Assembly: GCA_963704755.1 (NCBI GenBank)
Contig: OY969938.1
Span: 1,170,001-1,202,000, forward strand
Length of the DNA stretch: 32,000 nucleotides
Direction of reading: 5' to 3'
DNA from: an uncultured Chloroflexia bacterium
Lineage (GTDB): Bacteria > Chloroflexota > Anaerolineae > Anaerolineales > Anaerolineaceae
Made by a program: the position numbers and the translations under genes. Of this stretch, positions 4,147 to 24,610 are shown piece by piece. Each line of letters opens with the position of its first letter. The first letter of the stretch is position 1. The notes below the pieces were generated by a model, which was given only the letters and a program-made list of their open reading frames with translations, ran no database searches and had not been told where the DNA came from.

Positions 4147-4174
4147 CAAAAATCTTATTGTGGAGAGGAAAACC

Positions 4175-6709
4175 ATGGCGCTATCCAAAGACGGCTCATT
4201 TTACCTGGGCAAACTATTCGATACCTCATCGAAGAAATTGCTTGACCAACCCGTACTTTACGATCCGGCCGACTTGACCACTCACGCGGTCGTTACCGGC
4301 ATGACCGGCTCGGGCAAGACCGGGCTGTGCATCGGGCTGCTGGAAGAGACCGCCCTGGAAGGCATTCCGGCTATCGCCATCGATCCCAAGGGCGACCTGA
4401 CCAACCTGCTGCTGCACTTCCCCGCCCTGCTGCCGGCGGACTTCCAGCCCTGGATCGACCCCGAATCCGCCCGGCGCGAGGGCAAAAGGCTGGAGGTGCT
4501 GGCCGGTGAGACTGCTGAAACATGGAAGAATGGCCTGGCGGATTGGGGGCTGGGCAGCCAGCAGCTCCAGGAACTGAAAGATTTGGTCGAGTTCGGCCTG
4601 TACACCCCCGGCTCGACCAGCGGCACGGCCGTCAATATCCTCTCCTCCTTCAGCTCACCGGAGCTGTCCTGGGAGGACAACAGCGAGATCCTGCGCGAGA
4701 AAATTACGACCATCGTCAGTGCGCTGCTGGGGCTGGTCGGCCTGACCGATGTCGATCCGCTGCGCTCGCGCGAGCACATCCTGCTGTCCAATATCATCGA
4801 AAACGCCTGGAGCAAAAGCCAATCGCTGGACCTGACCGAACTGATCCTGCAAACCCAAAACCCGCCTTTCGAGCGTCTGGGCGCCTTCCCGGTAGACAAT
4901 TTCTTTCCGGAAAAGGACCGTTTTTCGCTGGCCATCCTGCTCAACAATTTCCTGGCCGCGCCTTCCTTCCAGATCTGGCGCGAAGGCCAGCCGCTCGACG
5001 TGGGCGCCTTGCTGTACACGCCCGAGGGCAAGCCCCGCCACAGCATTTTCTACCTGGCCCACCTGAGCGAGAGCGAGCGTATGTTCTTCGTCACCCTGCT
5101 GTTCGCCTCGATCGAATCCTGGATGCGCACCCAGCGCGGCACCGGCGGACTGCGCGCCCTGGTCTACATGGATGAGATCCTGGGTTACCTGCCCCCCACC
5201 GCCAACCCACCTTCCCGCCCGATCCTGCTTCGTTTGCTCAAACAGGCCCGTGCTTTCGGGGTTGGATTCCTGTTGGCCACCCAAAACCCGGTGGATGTGG
5301 ATTACAAGGGCCTCTCCAACGCCGGCACCTGGATCATAGGCCGTTTGCAGACCGACCAGGACAAGCAGCGCCTGCTGGACGGGCTCGAATCGGCCGGCGG
5401 GGACCTGGACCGCAAGTCGGCCGACCAGTTGATCTCCGGCCTGGGCAAGCGCACTTTCCTGCTGCACAACGTCCATGCCAAAGCGCCCCAGGTCTTTCAG
5501 ACCCGCTGGGCGCTCAACTATCTGGCCGGCCCGTTGACCCGCTCGCAGATTCCCCAGCTCATGGCCCTGGCCGGCGTACAGGCCGCACAAACCGCGCAGG
5601 CTGCATCTTCGACACCTCAAAGCAAGCCTGCTTCCGCCCAGGCTGCCGCACCGGCTGGGCCGGCCGCAGCGGTGGCCAGCCCTTCCGCCGGCGCAGAAAC
5701 GCTCTCCCAGACCCGCCCGGGCTTGCCGGCCGGGATCAATGAATATTTTCTGCCCAACGACCTGCCCTTTGGGCAGGCCCTGCAGGAAGCCAAAATTTCG
5801 TCCAGTGCGACCGTTGCTCAGCAGGGCATAATCTACCGCCCGGCCTTGCTGGCCCAGGCGGACGTGCATTACCTGGCGCGCAAGTACAACCTGGATTTCG
5901 ACCGTCATTTCGCCAGCCTGCCCATAGAAGCCCGCGGCAGGCAGGTTGCCTGGGAAGATTTCCCTGCCTCAGCTTACGCCCCCGACCAATTGAGCGCCGC
6001 ACCTGTCCCCGGCTCGAGCTATGCGCCTCTACCCGGCTGGCTCAGCGACGGCCGCCAGGTCAACGCCTGGCAGCAGGATTTCACCGATTGGGTCTATCGC
6101 TCCAGCGCAATCCACCTCAAGGTCAACGAAAAGCTCAATTTGGCGGCCGGGCCAGAAACGAACAGCGGTGAATTCCATGAAATGTGCTCTACGGCTGCCA
6201 AAAAGGCCATGAAAGAAGAAACGGACAAAGTCGATGCTGCCTACAAGAAGAAACTGGCTGCCCTGGAACAAAAGGTCAAACGCCAGGAGCGCGAAGTGGA
6301 CAGCCAGAAAGATGAGGTGTCTCAACGCCGCCTGGAAGAAGCCGGCGCGGGCGGCGAACTGATCTTAGGTCTTCTCGGTGGCCGGAAACGCACTGTATCT
6401 AAAACCTTGAGCAAGCATCGTATGGCTTCGCAAGCCAAGGAAGATCTGGCAGAGGAGAAGGTCGAGTTGGAAGGCTTGCAAAAGCAGCAAAAGGATCTGC
6501 AAGCCGAATACCAGCAGGCTTTGCAGGAGGTTCAGCAGCGCTGGGCCGACGTGGCCAGTGAGGTCAGCGAAGTGCCGCTGACCCCATACAAGAAGGATAT
6601 CTATGTCAACGCCTTCGGCGTCGCCTGGCTGCCCTATTACCGCCTGACGGTCGATTCGCAGGAGCGTGAGATCCCGGCCCACAAGGCCGCCGGCGAATCA
6701 GGCAAGTAA
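4175..6709 (+). CDS. HerA/FtsK-superfamily P-loop NTPase (DUF87/DUF853-like) with low-complexity linker and C-terminal coiled coil
   Basis: Walker A is VVTGMTGSGKTGL. The segment IAIDPKGDLTNLL is as in YjgR/HerA-like ATPases. Walker B is LVYMDEILGY, followed by LLATQNPVDVDYKGLSNAGTWIIGRLQTDQDK. An Ala/Pro/Gln-rich linker and heptad-like KKKLAALEQKVKRQEREV...LQKQQKDLQAEYQQALQEVQQRW follow. The ORF track starts at GTG 4160; ATG 4175 lies 6 nt after GGAGAGG and is preferred. Confidence 0.8.
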   Translation: MALSKDGSFYLGKLFDTSSKKLLDQPVLYDPADLTTHAVVTGMTGSGKTGLCIGLLEETALEGIPAIAIDPKGDLTNLLLHFPALLPADFQPWIDPESARREGKRLEVLAGETAETWKNGLADWGLGSQQLQELKDLVEFGLYTPGSTSGTAVNILSSFSSPELSWEDNSEILREKITTIVSALLGLVGLTDVDPLRSREHILLSNIIENAWSKSQSLDLTELILQTQNPPFERLGAFPVDNFFPEKDRFSLAILLNNFLAAPSFQIWREGQPLDVGALLYTPEGKPRHSIFYLAHLSESERMFFVTLLFASIESWMRTQRGTGGLRALVYMDEILGYLPPTANPPSRPILLRLLKQARAFGVGFLLATQNPVDVDYKGLSNAGTWIIGRLQTDQDKQRLLDGLESAGGDLDRKSADQLISGLGKRTFLLHNVHAKAPQVFQTRWALNYLAGPLTRSQIPQLMALAGVQAAQTAQAASSTPQSKPASAQAAAPAGPAAAVASPSAGAETLSQTRPGLPAGINEYFLPNDLPFGQALQEAKISSSATVAQQGIIYRPALLAQADVHYLARKYNLDFDRHFASLPIEARGRQVAWEDFPASAYAPDQLSAAPVPGSSYAPLPGWLSDGRQVNAWQQDFTDWVYRSSAIHLKVNEKLNLAAGPETNSGEFHEMCSTAAKKAMKEETDKVDAAYKKKLAALEQKVKRQEREVDSQKDEVSQRRLEEAGAGGELILGLLGGRKRTVSKTLSKHRMASQAKEDLAEEKVELEGLQKQQKDLQAEYQQALQEVQQRWADVASEVSEVPLTPYKKDIYVNAFGVAWLPYYRLTVDSQEREIPAHKAAGESGK

Positions 6710-10709: not shown

Positions 10710-11657
10710 TTACAGTGGGGATAGTTCGCGAACACGAACCAACGCCGCGGAGATCGTTTCACCCAGAAATTCACCCCCTGTGCGAGCGCGCAATGCCGGC
10801 TGATCGTCGAATGCCTGGCCGCCAAAGCCAAAAACGGGGACATTGCTCAACCGGCTCAACAAGCCCTGCATTCGGGCTAATTTTTCGGCCGGTTCCGGCA
10901 GAGTGGCCGTGAGCACGATCATATCCGGGTTTTCCAACCGTGCATATTCGATCAAATCTTCCAGGGGAATGTCCGGGCCCAGGTATTCCACCTGATAACC
11001 CTGGCTGCGTAAAAGAACGGCGAACATCAGCGCGCCGATCTCGTGATGATCTTCGGGGCCTGTCCCAACCAGGATCCGGGGGGCTCCCCGTTCTCCCGGA
11101 TAAGTCTGCAGCAGCCCGGCTAATTTTCCGCGCAGGTAGGTGCTGGCAAAATGTTCGGTCGCCACGCCTACTTCACCATGGTACCAGGCATCCCCGATTT
11201 GATGCAAACAAGGGGTAAAAATTTCCACAAGGGCTGTCTCCAAATCAAAGGCCGCCAGAATCCCCTGAAAGAGCGCATCGGCACCGCGTTCGTCCCGGCT
11301 GACGAGCGCTTTATACATTCTTTGAACAAATGGGGCCACTGTAAGGCTGCCCTTCACCGCCTGTCCGCCGGGAGCACTGCGGACCAAATCTGGCCAGTCC
11401 CCCGACCCGGTCTTCTTTCGCAGCTCAGCCACGGCTGAACTGATCGATACGCCTTCCTCGGTGCGCTTTTTCAGCCAGCGCAGGATGGCGATATCTTTTT
11501 CAGAATATAGGCGGTAGCGATTACTGGATCGGTGCGGTTGGACCACCTGATAACGCGCCTCCCAGGCGCGCACCGTAACCGGTAATAGACCGGTTTGAGC
11601 GGCTACCGTTTTGATGGTGTAGATTGGCTCATCCGAAAATACCGAACTCGAAGCCAT
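10710..11657 (-). CDS. MerR-family regulator with B12-binding domain (CarH/LitR-type light-responsive repressor)
   Basis: N-terminal MerR HTH is YTIKTVAAQTGLLPVTVRAWEARY. The W-x9-EH motif is present (WYHGEVGVATEH). The cobalamin-binding DxHxxG motif (EDHHEIG), then TATL, then GFGG follow. Confidence 0.85.
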   Translation of the reverse strand: MASSSVFSDEPIYTIKTVAAQTGLLPVTVRAWEARYQVVQPHRSSNRYRLYSEKDIAILRWLKKRTEEGVSISSAVAELRKKTGSGDWPDLVRSAPGGQAVKGSLTVAPFVQRMYKALVSRDERGADALFQGILAAFDLETALVEIFTPCLHQIGDAWYHGEVGVATEHFASTYLRGKLAGLLQTYPGERGAPRILVGTGPEDHHEIGALMFAVLLRSQGYQVEYLGPDIPLEDLIEYARLENPDMIVLTATLPEPAEKLARMQGLLSRLSNVPVFGFGGQAFDDQPALRARTGGEFLGETISAALVRVRELSPL

Positions 11658-14654: not shown

Positions 14655-15836
14655 TTAGCCTTTGACCGAGCCGGCCAGCAGCCCACGAACGAAATACCGC
14701 TGCAAGGCAAAGAACACGATCATTGGCAGCGCCATCGAGATGAACGCCGCGGCGGTCAACAACTGCCAGCCGCTTCCCAGGGACGTGACCATGTTGGCAA
14801 TCTGGTAGGTCAGCACCGGGTTCTGCCCGCCCAGGAAGACCAGGGCAACCAGGAAGTCATTCCAAATCCACAGGAACTGGAAGATACCCAGGGATGCCAG
14901 GGCCGGCACCGACAAGGGGATGGCCAGCCGGTAGAAGGCCGTCCAATGCGAAGCCCCATCCAGGTAGGCCGACTCGAACACTTCCCGCGGCAGCCCGCCC
15001 AGGAAGTTACGCATCAGGAAGATCGCGTACGGCAAGCCAAAGCCGGTATGGAATAGCCAGATGCCGACAAAAGTACCGTTCAAGCCGAGTTGGGCATACA
15101 GCTTCGAGATCGGGACCAGGGTCATCTGCAACGGGACGATCTGCAAGCCGACCAGCAGGGCAAACATCGCCTGCCGCCCGCGAAATTCCATCCAGGAAAA
15201 GGCGTAAGCAGCAAAGGCGGCAAAAATGATCGGGATGAAGGTCGCCGGAATCGAGACGATCAAGCTGTTGATGAACGCCCGGCCCATACCGCGTGGGTTG
15301 AGCAGGTCGCTGGAGTTACAGTTCAGATCGACGCTTTGTGTTCCGGCGGCGCAATCGGTCACATAGTTGTTTGTCCCCCGGTAGCCCATGATCGCGTCGA
15401 TATAGTTATTCAGCGTGAACAAAGGCGTCTTGTTGATGCCGGAAATGCGCTTGATGTAGGTTAAAACGTCGGCCGCCTCCTGGGCGCTGGGGACTGAAAT
15501 GGTGCCCATGTGTGGTTGGCCATTGAAATCCTTGTTGAGCACGGCCAGCAAGCTGGAAGAACGCGAGAATTGGGAGACGATGTTCGCATCCGTCAAATCC
15601 GCCGTGGGGATGGCCTTCCCGTCGCTGCCGTGGCAGGATGCACAGGAAGCCTTATATTCCTTCGCGCCCGGATAAGTAAACGCGGTCCACCAGCCGGTTA
15701 AGTTGATCGACTGTAATGGGCGGAAGGAGGTCACCAACAGGCCGATGGTGGGGACCAGCCAGATCACACAGATCCCAATCAGGATGATGTGGGTCGGCAG
15801 TGAGCGAAAGAAACTCTTGATACGATCGCCGTTCAT
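14655..15836 (-). CDS. Carbohydrate ABC transporter permease (MalG-like) carrying an inserted cytochrome c-like domain in the first periplasmic loop
   Basis: The C-terminal 260 aa form a typical MalG/BPD_transp_1 core, with an EAA-like motif ESAYLDGASHWTAFYRLAIP. About 110 extra residues after TM1 contain CASCH, PHMG and the helix EAADVLTYIKRI. The start overlaps the upstream permease stop (ATGA-type coupling). Confidence 0.85.
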   Translation of the reverse strand: MNGDRIKSFFRSLPTHIILIGICVIWLVPTIGLLVTSFRPLQSINLTGWWTAFTYPGAKEYKASCASCHGSDGKAIPTADLTDANIVSQFSRSSSLLAVLNKDFNGQPHMGTISVPSAQEAADVLTYIKRISGINKTPLFTLNNYIDAIMGYRGTNNYVTDCAAGTQSVDLNCNSSDLLNPRGMGRAFINSLIVSIPATFIPIIFAAFAAYAFSWMEFRGRQAMFALLVGLQIVPLQMTLVPISKLYAQLGLNGTFVGIWLFHTGFGLPYAIFLMRNFLGGLPREVFESAYLDGASHWTAFYRLAIPLSVPALASLGIFQFLWIWNDFLVALVFLGGQNPVLTYQIANMVTSLGSGWQLLTAAAFISMALPMIVFFALQRYFVRGLLAGSVKG

Positions 15837-16765
15837 CGGGTCGCCTCCTGCTGCTGGAAGCGGCGAATGTTCACAAACATCACCGGGATAATCAGGACTA
15901 CCAACACCATAGCGATGGCTGTGCCTCGCCCGGTTTGGAAGTTCTTGTACATTTCAAAATACATCCGGTTGGCGATCACGTCGGTACCGTAGTTCCCGCC
16001 GGTCATCACATAGACGATATCGAACACTTTCAGCACATTGATGATCATAGTGGTGATCACTACGGTGATGGTTGGGGCAATCATCGGGACCATAATCTGC
16101 CAGAAGACCGTCCACTCGTTCGCACCATCCACCCGGGCTGCTTCCAGAATTTCGTCCGGGACCCCCTTCAGGGCCGCGGCCAGGATGGTCATACAAAAGC
16201 CGGTCCACATCCACACGCCCACGACGATCAAACAAATCGTATTCACTTGTGGAACTGTCAGCCAGGCAACCGCCTTCCCGCCCAGCCCGGTTATGATTGC
16301 GTTCAGCAAACCAACCTGAACCTGGGTAGTACCGTAGTCGTAGACAAATTTCCAGATCACGCCTGCCCCAACGAAAGAAATGGCCATGGGCAGGAAGATG
16401 ATCGATTTGGCGATAGCCTCGTACTTGACCCGATCAGCGAGGGTAGCGATCAGCAGGCCAATCAAAACTGTCGCGCTAACCATCAGGACAATCCAGATCA
16501 AGTTGTTCAGCAAAGACGTCCGCATGACATCCGACGTCAAGGCGTAACGATAATTCTCGAATATTCCCCAACAGGGTTGGCCGGCCTGGCAAGCCTGGTT
16601 GGCCCAACCCGTGTTATCGACATTGCGAAAACTCAAATAAAGCGTATTCAGCCCCGGATAGACAATGAATACGAACATGACGATCAATGCGGGGGACAGA
16701 TAAAGCCAGGGGGTGAGTGGCTTTTGACGCATAACCCCCGGGACAACTTTCGCACTTGCAGCCAT
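15833..16765 (-). CDS. Carbohydrate ABC transporter permease (MalF/UgpA-like)
   Basis: 310 aa with six hydrophobic segments. The EAA motif is EAARVDGANEWTVFWQIMVP. Confidence 0.85.
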   Translation of the reverse strand: MAASAKVVPGVMRQKPLTPWLYLSPALIVMFVFIVYPGLNTLYLSFRNVDNTGWANQACQAGQPCWGIFENYRYALTSDVMRTSLLNNLIWIVLMVSATVLIGLLIATLADRVKYEAIAKSIIFLPMAISFVGAGVIWKFVYDYGTTQVQVGLLNAIITGLGGKAVAWLTVPQVNTICLIVVGVWMWTGFCMTILAAALKGVPDEILEAARVDGANEWTVFWQIMVPMIAPTITVVITTMIINVLKVFDIVYVMTGGNYGTDVIANRMYFEMYKNFQTGRGTAIAMVLVVLIIPVMFVNIRRFQQQEATR

Positions 16766-16834
16766 ATCGCTCCTCCTTCTAATGAAACACGCCGGGTGTC
16801 AGTTGACACCCGGCGTTGAATTACCAGGAACGTT

Positions 16835-18250
16835 TTACTTGCCTAGACCTGCCATTTGCGCAGCTTCTACATTAGCCAGGTTGGTATCCAGGTCCTGCCC
16901 ATTGACGGTGTTGACAATGGCAGTCCATTCGGCCGAGCTAAAGCCGCCCGGGATGGTGTCGCCCAGATCAGGGGTGAAGCCGGTGGCGTTGGCTAACATC
17001 TCGCCACGTTTTTCCGCACCTGCATCAGGATACGTTCCAACACCGGCCTTGTTGGGGGTCAGGTCAAAGCCTGCCGCTGCCCAGTTCTGGCCGCCCAGGT
17101 CCGAAGACAGGTAAGTAACCAGCGCCTGTACGGCCGGGGTATTGTTGAAAGCCATCATCCAGTCCCAACCACCCTGCAAACCCTGGGCACCCGGAACAGG
17201 GAAGAAGTCGTAGTCGGTGCCGTATTTCAGATCAGGATAGGTGCCGATGATCGTGCCGCTGGCAAAACCAGACTGCTTGACCATCATGGATTGCGGCGGA
17301 TCCGAGAAGACCTGCAGGATCGCGTCGTTGAAGTTAGTGGACAGGGTACCCTGAGCGCCGCCAACAGTGTACTTGGCGTCGGTAGCCCACTTCAGGTAGG
17401 TTTGGTAAGCCTGTTTCACACCGGCATCGTTGTAGGGAGTATCCCCGGTGATGATGCTGTTGACATAATCCGGGCCCTGCTGGACCAGGAGGATATCCTG
17501 GATGAAGTCGGAACCGGTCCAACCAGTCGCATCGCCAGATTCGAAGCCCATGCTCCAGGGCACGTCACCGTTGGAAACCATTTTTTCAACCAGGGTGTTC
17601 AGTTCATCCCAGGTGGTCGGCACGGTGTAACCCTTTTCAGCGAAGACCGCCGGATCGTACCAGATAATGGTCTTGACATCCGCTTTGACGGGCAGGCCCA
17701 GCCATTTGCCATCGATCGTACCATTCTTGACGAATACATCGGGGTAATTGGCAGCAACTGCGCCCAGGGTGTCCATGGGGACCAGTTTATCTTTGTACTG
17801 GATCAGTTGAGCAATATTCCAGAAAGCAACGTCTGGGGGTGTACCGGCCTGAACCTTGGTGTCCAGAACAGCCTGGTCACGGGTTGATTCAGGATTGATG
17901 GTGATACCGCAGGCATCGACGAGCGGTTTGAGGATGGTGTTCAGCTTGGTTTCCTCTTCACCTGACCATTGGTACAGCATGGAGATGGTGTCGCCAGCTT
18001 TTGCACCTTTGCAGTCGATCGCGGCAGTTGACCCGCCGGTTGTGGCTGTGGCTTCCGTCATCGCGGTGGTGGCAGTGGACGCCATCATTTCGGTGGGGGC
18101 CATTGTCGGGGCCATGGTGGGTTCCATTGTGGGAGCCGTTGAGGGTACTTCCGTCGGGGCGGTGGTGGCGGTTGCCGGGCTGCTGCAGGCAGCCAGCGCC
18201 ATCGCGGCGATCATTACGATACTAAATGCGAACCAGAAACGATTTTTCAT
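16835..18250 (-). CDS. Extracellular solute-binding lipoprotein (family 1, sugar ABC)
   Basis: The ORF track extends to 18364. ATG 18250 is preceded by GGAGGAGAAT and begins MKNRFWFAFSIVMIAAMALAAC (lipobox LAAC). A Thr/Ala/Pro-rich linker and an SBP_bac_1-like body follow. Confidence 0.85.
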   Translation of the reverse strand: MKNRFWFAFSIVMIAAMALAACSSPATATTAPTEVPSTAPTMEPTMAPTMAPTEMMASTATTAMTEATATTGGSTAAIDCKGAKAGDTISMLYQWSGEEETKLNTILKPLVDACGITINPESTRDQAVLDTKVQAGTPPDVAFWNIAQLIQYKDKLVPMDTLGAVAANYPDVFVKNGTIDGKWLGLPVKADVKTIIWYDPAVFAEKGYTVPTTWDELNTLVEKMVSNGDVPWSMGFESGDATGWTGSDFIQDILLVQQGPDYVNSIITGDTPYNDAGVKQAYQTYLKWATDAKYTVGGAQGTLSTNFNDAILQVFSDPPQSMMVKQSGFASGTIIGTYPDLKYGTDYDFFPVPGAQGLQGGWDWMMAFNNTPAVQALVTYLSSDLGGQNWAAAGFDLTPNKAGVGTYPDAGAEKRGEMLANATGFTPDLGDTIPGGFSSAEWTAIVNTVNGQDLDTNLANVEAAQMAGLGK

Positions 18251-18402
18251 ATTCTCCTCCATCCTTACGGATTGATTGACTTTCGATACTGGACTTTGTT
18301 TTCTAACGACCACACCAGAGGCAATTTTGCCGGGTGCAACCAAGAAATCAAATCGATGTTTCACTCACCTCCTTCCAGATGAAATTTCGGCTATGACTTC
18401 AT

Positions 18403-19407
18403 CTATGCAGTTTCGCGTTCGATCAAGGTTAACGGCAGCCGGATGTGTTGGACGGAGCGATTTGGGTTCGCAATCCGCGAAAAGAGCAGTTCCGCGGCTA
18501 CTTTTCCCGATTCGTCCAAAGGCTGCCGGATGGTTGACAATCCCATGTACTCAGCAATATCCAGGTCATCAAAGCCCAAAATCGCCAGGTCTTCCGGCAC
18601 ACGCAGATTTAACTGGCGAGCCGCCTTCAGCACACCGATGGCTTGCAAATCGGTTGCGCAGAATACGGCGGTGGGCCGATTCGGCTCCTTGAGCTTATCC
18701 ACAGCCAGGTAACGGGTAGCGTCCACGTGATAAGGCGTTTCCCAAACCAGGTCATTGCAAATTTCTATCTTATTTTCTCTTAGCACTTCACAAAAACCGG
18801 AAAGGCGTGAACTGATGGGGTTAATCCCATATTTTGGGAAATTTGTTTCACCCACAAAAGCAAATTTCCGGTGGCCCTTCCCCGCCAGGTACCGTCCGGC
18901 AATCCGTCCGCCTTCTTCATCGTCGATCTCGACGCAATTGAACCCGCTGATCGGATATTCGATCAAAACCATCTCCATCTGGTGCTGTCTCATCCGGTCG
19001 GCTATGGCCTGATCGATCCTGACCGAAATGAGAACCAGTCCATCCAGGTTGTGTGTGAGCGGGACCGTTTCGAGATAACGGTTCAACCGCTCGATCGTAT
19101 CAACGGTGAAAATAACCAGCTCGTAATTTGATTCAGATAAGACCGATGAGACCCCGCGCAGGCGCTGCACGAATGAAGGCCCGGTGAACCAGGGAGTAAT
19201 CACACCGACACGCCCGGAGGAGAGCAACGCCCGTGCCCGCGCTTCGGCCTTGGGGATAAACCCCAGTTGGTCGATCGCTTGGAGGACGAGCGTTCGGGTA
19301 GCTTCGTTAACCAATTCCGGTGAATTCAAAACCCGAGAAACTGTCGAAATGCTGACCCCAGCGGTGCGAGCAACGTCATAGATGGTCGGTAGACTTTTTC
19401 TCATCAA
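18403..19407 (-). CDS. LacI-family transcriptional regulator
   Basis: N-terminal HTH is TIYDVARTAGVSISTVSRVLN, followed by a periplasmic-binding-protein-like sugar-sensing core. Confidence 0.9.
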   Translation of the reverse strand: MMRKSLPTIYDVARTAGVSISTVSRVLNSPELVNEATRTLVLQAIDQLGFIPKAEARARALLSSGRVGVITPWFTGPSFVQRLRGVSSVLSESNYELVIFTVDTIERLNRYLETVPLTHNLDGLVLISVRIDQAIADRMRQHQMEMVLIEYPISGFNCVEIDDEEGGRIAGRYLAGKGHRKFAFVGETNFPKYGINPISSRLSGFCEVLRENKIEICNDLVWETPYHVDATRYLAVDKLKEPNRPTAVFCATDLQAIGVLKAARQLNLRVPEDLAILGFDDLDIAEYMGLSTIRQPLDESGKVAAELLFSRIANPNRSVQHIRLPLTLIERETA

Positions 19408-19901
19408 CTGATCTGGTTGGTTAAAGGACTTTAATAAGTAGCGAATTTTCTTGTGAATGCTTTATGAAAATTGTTTCAGAAAGCACTTTCATAATAACAA
19501 TAAATAGAGCGTTTGTCAATTATTAATTTATATTCTTAAGGTTAACAGTCAACGATTCGCAGTCCTGATCCTTGCCATTCTAGTTTCTTCAACCCCCCTT
19601 GCCGAAAATTCAAAAGCCTGGGCCACGAGTCCCGGTCCAAAGATCACCTCTTTCTCGAGAAGGCCCGAATACCTTCTCGACTCGCGACTGCCTTCCTCAA
19701 AAAGAGCAACCCAGTTAGAATACTTCCGTATAATTAAGCAGGTGATTAACGCAAATTCGGGGGGTGCGTTTTGATGTTTCGCTTTTCGCCTAAAAACCGC
19801 AGGAGCGAACGGTAAAATAACCCGGTTCCATCCAGGACATTTGCCAGGCCGGGCTTACAGCTTAAATCCAGCATCCGATACAAACCGGTCAGGAAGTCAG
19901 C

Positions 19902-20676
19902 ATGAACTTTAAATTCAAATTCGATTATTTCTGCACAAAACCTCACCAAGAAATTCGGTGACAAAAACGCTGTCGATGAGGTCAGTTTCCAGGTCTATCC
20001 CGGTGAAATCTTTGGATTTCTCGGGCCGAATGGGGCCGGAAAAACAACCACCATCAAAATGGTAGTCGGTTTACTCAAGCCCACCTCCGGAACAGCCACT
20101 ATCGCCGGCTACGATATCCAGGCCCAATCCATGTTGGCCAAACACTCCAGCGGGTACGTCCCGGACGAGCCCAACCTGTACGCCAAACTAACCGCCCGCG
20201 AACTGCTGCGCTTTGTCGGCGACCTGTACAACCTGCCCGCCGACCAGGCTCAACGCCGCGGCGAGGAACTGCTGCGCCTGTTCGAGTTGACCGAAGCTGC
20301 CGACCAGACTATTGATTCGTACAGCCACGGGATGCAGCAAAAAACTTCCCTGGCGGCCGCGCTTTTGCACGATCCTAAAGCCCTGGTCCTGGACGAACCG
20401 ACCGTCGGCCTGGACCCGCGTTCCGCCCGCCTTATCAAGGACATTCTGCGCCAGATCGCTGACCGGGGTGCGGCCGTGATGCTTTCGACCCACATTTTGG
20501 AAATCGCGGAAAGAATGTGCGACCGTATTGGGATCATCAACAAGGGCAAGCTGATCGCTGTCGGCACGCTGGATGAACTGCGGAAAAGTGGCAATGGTGA
20601 GACCAGTTTGGAGGATATCTTCCTCGAGCTGACGGGTGGTGCCGAATACGCCGAGATTGCCGAGGTCATGAAATGA
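19902..20676 (+). CDS. ABC transporter ATP-binding protein (ABC-2/exporter type); N-terminus apparently interrupted by a +1 frame change
   Basis: Walker A GPNGAGKTTT is encoded upstream of the track's first Met (20059). The ABC signature (SHGMQQK) and Walker B (LVLDEPTVGLD) are present. The ABC frame is open back to 19906 with no ATG/GTG/TTG. An ATG with RBS AGGAAG sits at 19902 in the adjacent frame. Confidence 0.75.
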
Positions 20677-22427
20677 CCGCTCAACCGGCGATTTTTCCAT
20701 CCGGTCAATCGGGTATGTGGAGTTCGGTCTTCCTCTTGCTGCGCCTGCGCGTAAGATTGTGGTTCAATTCGTTCAAAAAGGCCAAACTGCTGCGCAAAAT
20801 CATGACGATCCTGTTTGCGCTGGTCATCCTGGCGTTTGGGATTGGCATGATGGTCGGCAGTTTCTTCTTGCTGAGACTGCTGCAATCGCCCCAAGTAGCC
20901 GGTTATATCGATATCGACCCGATCCTGGCTGCCTTGCCCAGCATCATCCTCACTGCCGGGTTCATCGTTATCCTGGCCACCAACTTCAGTGTATTGCTGC
21001 AGGCGCTCTACCTGAGCCGCGATATGGACTTCTTGATCGCCGCGCCGATCCCCATGCGGGCGGTTTTCCTTTCGAAAATGATCCAGGCCATTCTGCCGAA
21101 TTTTGGGTTGTTTTGCCTGGCCGGTCTCCCAATCCTGTTTGGGCTGGCCGGTTCAAAGGGATACAATGTGCTGTTTTATGTGGTCACGGTCCTCCAAGCC
21201 GCCATGCTGGCCCTGGCCGCCGGCGGATTGGCCAGCATCCTGGTCATGCTGGTCGTCAGAGTCGTCCCGGCCCGCCGGGTAGCTGAAGTGCTCGGGTTTG
21301 TTGGCGCGCTGGTGACCATCACTCTCAGCCAATCCGGAAATTTGATGAACCAGGTCGATTTTAACAAGGCCCAGGTAGCGAATGTCTTTTCGCGTATTAC
21401 CTTCCTCAACCAGCCCTGGTCGCCTCTGGCCTGGATCGGACATGGGCTGGTCGACCTGGGCACAGGCGTGTGGGCCAGCGGACTGGCTTTGACCGTCGCC
21501 ACCCTGGTTTTGTCGACCGGGATCTTCGTGATTTCACTGGTTTCGTCCGAAAAACTGTATTACAGCGGTTGGGCCAGGATGCAGGGTAACTCGCAGAAGC
21601 GCAAGGTCTCGAACGGCGCCAAACGCCACGTAACCGCCTCCGGGCCCGGCGTTCTGGTCATCTTCCCGCGCGCATCGCGGGCCATCATCCGTAAAGATTT
21701 CCTGCTGCTGCGCCGTGATTTACGCAACCTGTCGCATTTTATTTCCCCGTTGATCATCGGGTTTGTGATGCTGCTCTCGACCGGCCGTGGAATTGGCGCC
21801 GCGCAAGACTCGGCCGGTTTTATGCAGCGCCTTCCCCAGGTGGCACAGTATGCCAACATCGGATTGACCTTCTTTGTGAGCTGGATGCTGATGGTCAACC
21901 TGGCCACCAATTCGATTTCACGGGAAGGCAAGAATTACTGGCTGCTGAACGCTGCCCCGCTCAAACCGTCTCATTTAATCGTCGGCAAATTCGTGGTTTC
22001 TTTCCTGCCCGGCCTGGTATTGGCCTGGGCCTTTATCCTCGTTTCTTCCCTCTTAAATCCGCTCCGGGCCAGCGGGCTGGTCTACAGCCTGGCGGTGGTT
22101 ACTTTGCTGATTTTTGGCTTGAACGGATTACTGCTCACCTTTGGTGTTTTTGCCGCCAAACTGGATTGGGAAGATGTGCGTAAGCAGGGCATGCGCGGCG
22201 CCTCCGGCTGCCTGGGTGTGTTGGCCAGTTTTGCCTACGGCATTATCGCCATGGCTTTGTTTTTAGGCCCGCCTGCGCTGTGGTCGCTGTTTCTCCCCAA
22301 TAGTGAGGTCTGGATCGGCCAGGCAATCGGCCTGCTGGTTGGCGCCGTCGCCGTGGCCCTGGTGACCTTCATTCCGTTAGGACAGGCAACCAGGCACGTC
22401 CCCCGCATCGGCGAGCCGGCCAATTGA
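20673..22427 (+). CDS. Large polytopic permease partner of the ABC ATPase (putative ABC exporter family)
   Basis: 584 aa. The start overlaps the ATPase stop (ATGA). The basic N-terminal segment LRLRVRLWFNSFKK is followed by at least 10 hydrophobic helices. Confidence 0.8.
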   Translation: MTAQPAIFPSGQSGMWSSVFLLLRLRVRLWFNSFKKAKLLRKIMTILFALVILAFGIGMMVGSFFLLRLLQSPQVAGYIDIDPILAALPSIILTAGFIVILATNFSVLLQALYLSRDMDFLIAAPIPMRAVFLSKMIQAILPNFGLFCLAGLPILFGLAGSKGYNVLFYVVTVLQAAMLALAAGGLASILVMLVVRVVPARRVAEVLGFVGALVTITLSQSGNLMNQVDFNKAQVANVFSRITFLNQPWSPLAWIGHGLVDLGTGVWASGLALTVATLVLSTGIFVISLVSSEKLYYSGWARMQGNSQKRKVSNGAKRHVTASGPGVLVIFPRASRAIIRKDFLLLRRDLRNLSHFISPLIIGFVMLLSTGRGIGAAQDSAGFMQRLPQVAQYANIGLTFFVSWMLMVNLATNSISREGKNYWLLNAAPLKPSHLIVGKFVVSFLPGLVLAWAFILVSSLLNPLRASGLVYSLAVVTLLIFGLNGLLLTFGVFAAKLDWEDVRKQGMRGASGCLGVLASFAYGIIAMALFLGPPALWSLFLPNSEVWIGQAIGLLVGAVAVALVTFIPLGQATRHVPRIGEPAN

Positions 22428-23656: not shown

Positions 23657-24610
23657 TCAGGGTGTGGGATTATCCCAATAGCGGACCTGGTCCACCCGCA
23701 CGGTCAGGTTTTCAGTCTCTCGGGCGCCGATGAACACGCCGAAATAGCCTTGAGAGAACATATTATCGTCCGCTTCTTTGAGCATCTTCCCGTTAGCGTA
23801 AACGATCAGGCGATCACCCACGGCCATCAAACCCATCCGGTTGGTCTGGTTCTGCCCGCTGTTGATCGCGTCGCTCTTCGTCCAGTCGATCAGGTTAATC
23901 ATCTCTCCCTTCGCGCCGATCTCTGCGTTCCAGCGCCGGAGAGAATACTGGCCATCACAGGAAAAGCCAAGCAAATAGCCCCGATCCGCATTCGTGGCGT
24001 CAGGCACGCGCACGAACACGCCGTAACGATCATCGCCGCCGCAGGTAGTGGTCTGGAAGGTAACTTCCAGGTAGAAATTCGTCAGCAAAGGGGTCGTCAA
24101 ACGCCAGCCATCGGTGGTCGTTAGCCCGGTCAGGCTCATCACCCCGTTGCTGAAATCGAGCGAGGTATATTTATCGGTTCCGAGCGGCCAGTTCTTGCCG
24201 TCGTTCATGTCATCAACCCAGGTGGGGTTTCCTAATTGGTTAATCGGATCCCCGGGCGGAGGGGTAAAGGCAATGGTCGCTGTAGGTTGGCCGGTCGCAG
24301 TTGGCGCCGCGGTAGCCGTCTCGGTCGGGGCCACCGTTTCGGTCGGCGTGGGCGGTTGTGCGGTAGCCGCATCTTGGGCAGGTGGCTGAGTAGCCGTATT
24401 GGCCGGGACCACCGTCACCGGGATTGTCGGCAGTTGTTGGGTCGGGTTACTACCCTGAACGGCGATCGTACTGGTCGGCATGGTGGTTAAAATCTGTGCC
24501 ACCTGGGTGGATATCGTCGAATCATCCGGCGTCGGGACCTCGGTATTATTGAAGGCACTACATCCAGCCAGCAACGCTGCGATTAAAAGAAAAGGAAGAA
24601 AACGCTTCAT
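23657..24610 (-). CDS. Secreted lipoprotein with Thr/Pro-rich linker and C-terminal ConA/LamG-like (DUF1080-like) beta-sandwich domain
   Basis: Signal peptide and lipobox MKRFLPFLLIAALLAGC. A low-complexity linker of about 110 aa follows. The C-terminal strand pattern is YLEVTFQ...GVFVRV...GYLLGFSCDGQYSLRRW...FGVFIGA...VDQVRYW. Confidence 0.7.
   Translation of the reverse strand: MKRFLPFLLIAALLAGCSAFNNTEVPTPDDSTISTQVAQILTTMPTSTIAVQGSNPTQQLPTIPVTVVPANTATQPPAQDAATAQPPTPTETVAPTETATAAPTATGQPTATIAFTPPPGDPINQLGNPTWVDDMNDGKNWPLGTDKYTSLDFSNGVMSLTGLTTTDGWRLTTPLLTNFYLEVTFQTTTCGGDDRYGVFVRVPDATNADRGYLLGFSCDGQYSLRRWNAEIGAKGEMINLIDWTKSDAINSGQNQTNRMGLMAVGDRLIVYANGKMLKEADDNMFSQGYFGVFIGARETENLTVRVDQVRYWDNPTP

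Follow-up and report, generated by a model that had tools for sequence, protein, structure and literature searches.

A 32,000-nucleotide stretch of the genome of an uncultured Chloroflexia bacterium (contig OY969938.1; the whole stretch is called the window below) carries on its reverse strand a gene for a permease of the MalG/SugB type, a membrane subunit of an ATP-binding cassette (ABC) sugar importer. Between the first two transmembrane (TM) helices of this permease lies a segment that profile scores, fold matches and conservation together strongly indicate to be a class I cytochrome c-like domain, and we consider it highly probable, from its sequence and its predicted structure, that this module is a true extracytoplasmic haem c domain. 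Our overall explanation is put forward more tentatively, as one that may well hold: the protein would be an alpha-glucoside importer permease with a monohaem class I cytochrome c domain in its docking loop, of the P1 type, and this domain would modulate uptake. The features of the gene on which the argument relies are the following:

14655-15836, reverse strand: MalG/SugB-type (AglG-like) ABC permease with cytochrome c module; open reading frame of 393 aa, PF00528
15726-15794, reverse strand: TM1, residues ~15-37, predicted signal-anchor exporting the next loop; Kyte-Doolittle maximum 2.81, predicted helix 15-38
15435-15677, reverse strand: class I cytochrome c-like module, residues ~54-134; PF13442 and PF00034, domain model, relatives without the insert
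15630-15644, reverse strand: CASCH haem c attachment motif, C65, C68 and H69; TGT GCA TCC TGC CAC read directly
15510-15512, reverse strand: codon (CAC) of His109, likely distal ligand; invariant in the family
15507-15509, reverse strand: codon of Met110, canonical Met position; not conserved
15441-15485, reverse strand: predicted C-terminal amphipathic helix of the module, residues 118-132, AQEAADVLTYIKRIS; helix prediction
15282-15434, reverse strand: second sub-domain of the loop, residues 135-185; invariant C162 and C173, predicted local distance difference test (pLDDT) 79-87
14682-15230, reverse strand: TM core, TM2-TM6; PF00528 residues 203-385, hydropathy, predicted helices, SugB and MalG matches
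14913-14975, reverse strand: EAA loop, residues 288-308, ESAYLDGASHWTAFYRLAIPL (ESAYLDG...IPL), cytoplasmic ATPase contact; between TM4 and TM5

A class I cytochrome c-like module in the permease

The original prediction, made from the DNA letters, had described an oversized MalG-type permease with a c-type haem motif at 15630-15644, and both observations were borne out. The reverse strand indeed encodes CASCH there, and no second CxxCH occurs in the six reading frames of the window (about 64,000 codons); the chance expectation is about 5e-4 in a 393-aa protein of this composition. The Pfam cytochrome c profiles PF13442 and PF00034 were both above their gathering cut-offs on the whole permease (28.6 bits against a cut-off of 27, and 22.1 bits against 21.3), each over residues 57-130 and with nearly the full profile covered; on the isolated residues 50-140 they gave 32.8 and 27.0 bits, respectively. 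The boundaries of the module, at residues ~54 and ~134, fall between GWWTAF and FTLNNYIDA in the alignment with insert-less relatives. GC content is 0.576 in the insert and 0.577 in the rest of the gene, so that nothing in its composition points to the insert being a recent foreign arrival.

An AlphaFold model of the domain (residues 41-190) was confident, with pLDDT of about 95 over residues 60-130, and all 50 of the PDB matches listed for it by Foldseek were c-type cytochromes or cytochrome-containing complexes. These matches include KustC0563, cytochromes c6, the ActE subunit of alternative complex III (ACIII) from Roseiflexus/Chloroflexus, the c domain of NirS, OmcF and TtX183A, and the M58H variant of cytochrome c6 (4h0k) is among the best of them. 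Foldseek probabilities were mostly 0.6-0.98 (lowest 0.23), with TM-scores of ~0.5-0.63 as normalised to the small monohaem targets. The terminal helix pointed out earlier, SAQEAADVLTYIKRIS (117-132), is also present, with a helix predicted over residues 118-132, and it aligns with the L-S-x-D-D-I-x-A-V-x-A-Y-L-K helix of tandem cytochromes c. Outside the permeases, the latter are the closest relatives of the module, at ~30% identity; in these proteins of 600-1455 aa, Ala/Pro-rich linkers connect 6-18 monohaem cytochrome c domains in tandem, each with the canonical G-x-M-P Met (P0124, P0127, P0132, P0135, P0139). By sequence, TtX183A (8q1v, E 4e-4) was the second-best PDB match of the module, with a similarity that spans the haem-motif region only.

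Two points weigh against reading the segment as a haem c domain: the Foldseek E-values are weak (0.04-1), as expected of an apo model, and are not decisive alone, and the case for haem is built wholly on sequence and predicted structure.

Topology of the host protein

Apart from the insert, the protein is a conventional sugar permease. PF00528 matches residues 203-385 (E 6e-13, Pfam), and the best PDB relatives by sequence are SugB (8ja7_B, E 2e-23) and MalG (2r6g_G, E 5e-14), both of which begin to align only at residue ~185. The 393 residues exceed SugB (274 aa) by ~120 and MalG (296 aa) by ~100. The full-length AlphaFold model, with pLDDT of 74 (81-88 in the loop), retrieved only transporters by Foldseek, SugB and MalG at the top, while the cytochrome fold emerged from the separate domain model.

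Six hydrophobic segments were seen in the hydropathy profile (residues ~15-37, 188-212, 225-245, 257-277, 308-335 and 360-383). In this transporter class the EAA loop makes the contact to the cytoplasmic ATPase and must itself be cytoplasmic; here it lies between TM4 and TM5, and its residues E288 and G294 are invariant in the homologue alignment. Because this loop is cytoplasmic and the protein has six TM helices, the topology places the TM1-TM2 loop on the outside of the cell, and this loop is the homologue of the periplasmic loop P1 of MalG and SugB. The earlier claim of a periplasmic loop thus holds as to the side of the membrane and not as to the word: the host clade has been reported to lack an outer membrane (PMC4653793), and 'extracytoplasmic' is the fitter term for the loop of a clade described as single-membraned.

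The length surplus has two parts. Residues 55-133 (15438-15674) lie between TM1 and TM2, as had been proposed; some 50 further extra residues (135-185) form a separate sub-domain, which was not part of that claim and which is common to cytochrome-less relatives of 316-341 aa, making even these ~40 aa longer than SugB. Its two invariant Cys residues, C162 and C173 (codons at 15351-15353 and 15318-15320, reverse strand), probably form an extracytoplasmic disulfide, as their conservation suggests.

The sixth haem ligand

The Met of a PHMG motif had been named as candidate sixth ligand of the haem iron. The motif is indeed present (P108-G111), with Met110 at the canonical position, where it aligns with the G-x-M-P Met of the tandem cytochrome c proteins. 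The residue is variable, however, and the adjacent His109 is the likelier ligand. Position 110 was Met in 78, Leu in 41 and another residue in 1 of 120 close homologues; in the window and 71 species-level genomes (72 in all) the counts were 54, 17 and 1, and among 137 insert-bearing loops 84, 44 and 9. Met is therefore found in only about two thirds of the modules, and conservation of this residue across the homologous permeases did not hold up. In addition, not a single Met lies between CxxCH and the C-terminal helix in 17 of the 182 distinct modules; these retain His109, which is invariant in every set (120/120, 72/72, 137/137 and 182/182). Met110 as a general sixth ligand was ruled out by the Leu or other residues in about one third of the modules and by the 17 Met-less ones among the 182.

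Since His109 is the only universally present distal ligand, bis-His ligation of the iron by His69 and His109 appears likelier than His/Met ligation, and we favour it, if without great confidence. With such ligation the haem would probably be of low potential, and the module is likely an atypical (His/His) class I-like cytochrome that departs from its class in the Met ligand. Two considerations speak against this assignment. Ligation by His109 is deduced from conservation alone, and the Leu110 forms often carry a Met at +6 (19/45, vs 3/126), so that a Met ligand is possible in part of the family.

Conservation and all-or-none distribution of the module

A homologue search over 5.8 billion proteins returned thousands of relatives, and the conservation counts for close homologues were taken from the best 120. 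These are 71-100% identical to the permease, nearly all 389-398 aa long, and come from metagenome genomes of Chloroflexota/Anaerolineales, where the protein names go no further than 'alpha-glucoside transport system permease' or 'ABC transporter permease subunit'. Precomputed Pfam annotations of the homologues show the permease-cytochrome combination; several close homologues are without the cytochrome annotation. In a second survey, in which one genome per species was scanned, relatives of the loop were found to be encoded in 218 species-level genomes, and detailed counts were taken from the best 80 of these 218. All 80 are Chloroflexota and, where classified, mostly of the class Anaerolineae; the cultured carriers among them include Pelolinea submarina MO-CFX1, Thermanaerothrix daxensis GNS-1 and T. 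solaris.

The haem attachment motif was found to be conserved throughout the insert-bearing homologues: it is retained by the close homologues (120/120), by the species-level genomes (80/80) and by the distinct modules (182/182), and in the set made up of the window and 71 species-level genomes its two Cys and its His are likewise invariant (72/72). Each of the 120 close homologues has exactly one CxxCH, whose two middle residues vary (15 variants), and the P-H motif is kept along with CxxCH in all 80 species-level genomes. The invariant positions of the loop are C65, C68, H69, H109, C162 and C173. The ratio of nonsynonymous to synonymous substitution rates (dN/dS) of the module was 0.06-0.21 within the cytochrome-bearing clade (pairs with finite dS), which indicates purifying selection. 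The module has 2-5 times the dN of the membrane core, in keeping with an exposed soluble domain. Against the selection estimate it must be said that dS is saturated in several pairs, including, for the module, the pair of the window and its closest relative, L006.

A search seeded with a cytochrome-less relative revealed a large group of sister permeases of 316-341 aa in the same taxa. Outside the insert these are 61-71% identical to the window protein, and the entire difference is one clean gap at residues ~54-134, running from just after G-W-W-T-A-F to just before F-T-L-N-N-Y-I-D-A. Loop lengths are bimodal: 137 loops of 80-99 residues all carry CxxCH, and 112 loops of 10-39 residues never do, with no intermediate loop and no decayed motif among the 137 and 112 loops collected. 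The cytochrome-less genes occupy the same operon, with genes for a LacI-family repressor, a substrate-binding protein (SBP) and two permeases, then GH13 or GH65 enzymes. We infer that the module is accessory and not required for translocation itself, because near-identical transporters in the same operon type go without it.

A neighbour-joining distance tree was built from the membrane core, with midpoint rooting and no support values; in it the cytochrome-bearing forms are basal and the insert-less forms nested. This tentatively suggests that the cytochrome-bearing form is ancestral and that the insert-less forms are losses. Such loss in nested clades counts against the proposed role to the extent that it demonstrates dispensability, and only that.

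Capability of the carrier genomes for haem c

A covalent haem would need the corresponding machinery, and cytochrome c maturation genes were absent from the 32-kb window. Among the related loci, a Pelolinea metagenome-assembled genome (MAG; L040, 2025-4067) has a gene for a CcmF-type haem lyase (PF01578 + PF16327) directly upstream of the operon, and in another MAG (L003, 9356-14428) an operon for a caa3 oxidase, with a COX2-cytochrome c fusion, adjoins the cytochrome-permease operon. Small 5-6-haem cytochromes are encoded near the operon in two loci (L027, 3-599; L044, 2425-2958). T. daxensis, which bears the family, has ACIII, NirS and NrfA. The adjacencies demonstrate a capability for c-type cytochromes, not a functional link, since the caa3, CcmF and multihaem neighbours were each seen in only 1-2 of ~80 loci. 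Of the four refuting conditions attached to the original prediction, those on profile and fold, on CxxCH conservation and on topology were thus decided in its favour; the fourth, on haem attachment machinery, was examined in these related genomes.

Operon, neighbouring genes and probable substrate

The permease is the last of four genes that run in the same direction. Upstream of it we found:

15833-16765, reverse strand: partner permease, AglF/MalF/SugA-type, 310 aa; PF00528, E 1.5e-17
16835-18364, reverse strand: substrate-binding lipoprotein, a divergent sugar SBP; lipobox LAAC, weak sugar-SBP matches
18403-19407, reverse strand: LacI-family repressor, head of the operon; PF00356 + PF13377

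The stop of the partner permease overlaps the start of the cytochrome-permease gene by 4 nt, and two Cys residues are likewise paired in the first outside loop of the partner (QACQAGQPCWG). The SBP has a long Pro/Thr/Ala-rich tether after its lipobox LAAC. It matched none of the Pfam SBP families and gave weak matches to an NCBIfam sugar SBP, to the GlcS type and, in the PDB, to AcbH and NagB2 (E ~1e-11). The GTG listed as its start probably precedes the true one by ~37 codons; the likelier start is at MKNRFW. Between the SBP and permease genes lies a hairpin (16789-16816, reverse strand; 12-bp stem with 9 G-C pairs), which may set the ratio of SBP to permease expression. A sigma-70-type promoter (11/12) at 19491-19519, upstream of the LacI gene, is a hint only; the promoter and terminator scan of the window gave match counts no higher than those of shuffled sequence.

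Gene order was counted over 71 related loci. The partner permease stands at position -1 in 57 of them, the SBP family is present in 59 (at position -2 in 54) and the LacI family in 42 (at position -3 in 35). The operon is followed in 46/71 loci by TreS, a maltose alpha-D-glucosyltransferase (TIGR02456, 821 bits, cut-off 678), and in 26/71 by a GH63/MGH1-like hydrolase, with GH13 also recurrent; the cytochrome-less sister operon has GH65 and a HAD-family hydrolase. The operon of the window itself contains no glycosidase gene. Because the neighbours are TreS and glycoside hydrolases and SugB is the best structural relative, the substrate would be an alpha-glucoside (of the trehalose/maltose type) or a related glucosyl compatible solute. 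A gene for a MalK-type ATPase is absent from the operon and from the 32-kb window. In this transporter class the ATPase is commonly encoded elsewhere and shared; the MalK-like family was seen in 5 related loci, in some of them right beside the operon.

The remainder of the window holds unrelated housekeeping genes. Among these, the gene at 10710-11657 (reverse strand) encodes a MerR-type helix-turn-helix with two B12-binding domains, a CarH-like architecture, and adjoins a gene for a class V aminotransferase. An open reading frame of 849 aa at 4160-6709 (forward strand) gave only marginal, below-cut-off matches to the N-terminus of HerA/DUF87 ATPases. At 20059-22427 (forward strand) an ABC ATPase (20059-20676) and a 584-aa ABC_tran_2 membrane protein overlap by 4 nt; the pair is conserved in L006 and is unrelated to the importer. 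The match of this ATPase begins at profile position 31, and its true start is probably upstream of 20059. Finally, the gene at 23657-24610 (reverse strand), syntenic in L006, encodes a lipoprotein whose 3-keto-disaccharide hydrolase/DUF1080 domain reaches 27.6 bits (cut-off 26.8).

Possible roles of the module

Of the mechanisms considered, the likeliest is one in which the module modulates uptake, as follows. TM1 would export the loop, and a cytochrome c maturation system would then attach the haem covalently. The haem could report the extracellular redox state or a small ligand, such as O2, nitric oxide (NO) or CO, and a conformational change at the docking loop would tune the docking of the SBP, hence uptake; alternatively, it could act by movement of TM1-TM2. 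Loop P1 of MalG cross-links to MalE throughout the transport cycle (PMC6906923). We regard a sensing or regulatory role of the module as possible, on the doubtful side. Its most specific form is somewhat unlikely, namely a built-in redox or gas switch, in which a bis-His haem would gate SBP docking and so couple uptake of a trehalose/maltose-type sugar to the external redox state in facultatively anaerobic filamentous bacteria. What counts against this role is that the related loci offer no signalling partner, no conserved oxidoreductase and no differential operon content that would favour sensing over other roles.

The same insertion point could instead serve a rigid, cofactor-stabilised protrusion that recruits or orients the lipid-anchored SBP without any redox or ligand signalling. 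The loop that bears the insertion is precisely the homologue of the MalE-contacting P1 of MalG, a folded docking domain in an outside loop of an ABC importer has its precedent in MalF, and the faster evolution of the module surface relative to the membrane core, at 2-5 times its rate with the haem ligands fixed, would fit such a platform. The sister transporters nevertheless manage without the module, with SBPs and partner permeases of similar length, and there is no clear reason to keep a covalent haem in more than 200 species for pure scaffolding. We consider a purely structural platform unlikely.

Quite unlikely, too, is that the permease is a mere tether and that the haem serves respiration or extracellular electron transfer, not sugar transport. 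A cell with a single membrane has to tether a small cytochrome c, and the clade, described as lacking an outer membrane, has ACIII, a haem-copper oxidase, NirS and NrfA. The caa3 oxidase operon that adjoins in one MAG, the multihaem cytochromes near two loci and the tandem cytochrome c proteins as nearest non-permease relatives of the module all agree with an electron carrier. The canonical Met, however, is unconserved and absent in 17 modules, which is unusual for oxidase donors; the module keeps to a single transporter family and a single site of insertion; and no redox partner is conserved in the neighbourhood of the 71 loci, the caa3, CcmF and multihaem adjacencies being as rare as described above.

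Redox chemistry on the substrate is very improbable. The haem would here partner an extracytoplasmic sugar oxidoreductase, for example of the glucoside 3-dehydrogenase type, and an oxidised sugar would be made or imported. The 3-keto-disaccharide hydrolase/DUF1080 lipoprotein gene lies 8 kb away, with synteny in L006, and the second-best PDB match, 8q1v, represents a cytochrome domain that is attached to a carbohydrate-active redox protein. Yet a dehydrogenase or oxidase is conserved beside the operon in none of the 71 loci, where the partners are TreS and glycoside hydrolases; the DUF1080 gene is split from the operon by unrelated genes on the opposite strand; and the X183 similarity is limited to the haem-motif region. 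The glucoside 3-dehydrogenase lead was dropped, the DUF1080 gene being outside the operon and conserved only in the syntenic L006, with no dehydrogenase conserved nearby.

That the module is a non-functional relic (an idea raised in the original prediction), or its CxxCH fortuitous, is scarcely credible: the full-protein Pfam scores are barely above their cut-offs and the precomputed annotation of several close homologues lacks the cytochrome, but the low chance expectation, the uniqueness of the motif in six frames, the invariant C, C, H and distal His in 182 modules, the lack of decayed intermediates, the dN/dS well below 1 and the confident fold prediction contradict it.

Comparison with known systems

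Like MalG of the E. coli maltose importer (MalFGK2-E) and SugB of the mycobacterial trehalose importer (LpqY-SugABC), the permease has a six-TM PF00528 core and an EAA loop, and its gene shares an operon with those for a partner permease and a sugar-binding lipoprotein. It differs from them in the TM1-TM2 loop, which has ~150 residues here, comprising the cytochrome c domain and the Cys-Cys sub-domain, vs ~25-50 in MalG and SugB, and in that the operon of the window is without an ATPase gene. None of the ABC importer permeases in the PDB that were matched by sequence or fold aligns over the TM1-TM2 loop. The Ig-like P2 domain of MalF is likewise a folded extra domain in an outside loop at the surface where the SBP docks; unlike the module, it belongs to the other subunit, to another loop and to another fold, and has no cofactor.

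As a cytochrome, the module resembles cytochrome c6, KustC0563, ActE and OmcF in size, in the order of N-terminal helix and CxxCH, and in the C-terminal amphipathic helix. It is unlike such small class I cytochromes in that the Met is unconserved, the adjacent invariant His probably taking its place, and in that it sits within a transporter, flanked by two TM helices, and is neither free nor single-anchored. The X183 domains of Cellvibrio japonicus and Teredinibacter turnerae are likewise small class I cytochromes c fused to extracellular proteins of carbohydrate metabolism. Their haem has His/Met ligation (PMC10916295), and polysaccharide monooxygenases can be reduced by a related X183 domain (PMC8981238); the X183 domains are part of large extracellular redox proteins, with no transporter context.

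The most plausible functional precedents, and the closest, are chemoreceptor sensors with haem c. The sensors GSU0582 and GSU0935 of Geobacter and a Cache domain that binds NO carry a c-type haem on the outside (PMC3460858, PMC8396549, PMC12889525). As proposed for the permease module, these have a covalent haem c in the outside domain of a membrane protein, where it is thought to sense redox state or gases. They combine a PAS/Cache fold with a chemotaxis or kinase output, in contrast to the class I cytochrome c fold in a transporter without any signalling domain found here.

Meaning for the family

A known transporter and a known cofactor domain are joined here in an unprecedented and widely conserved arrangement. 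The searchable literature, of which our coverage was incomplete, yielded no description of a fusion of cytochrome c with an ABC permease, which is absence of evidence only. As far as we are aware, the control of ABC importers is exerted on the side of the cytoplasm, for instance through the action of EIIAglc on MalK, through trans-inhibition domains and at the level of transcription, and we know of no ABC importer membrane subunit with a redox cofactor. The protein is currently annotated merely as 'ABC transporter permease'.

In conclusion, a predicted covalent-haem domain is positioned at the surface that receives the SBP in more than 200 species of an abundant and poorly understood clade of soils, sediments and digesters. 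The natural pair of transporters with and without the module makes the effect of the haem on the transporter directly testable. Were the module an anchored electron carrier, it would show by what means bacteria with a single membrane tether their cytochromes; a haem that modulates transport would represent a new coupling of nutrient uptake to the redox or oxygen state.

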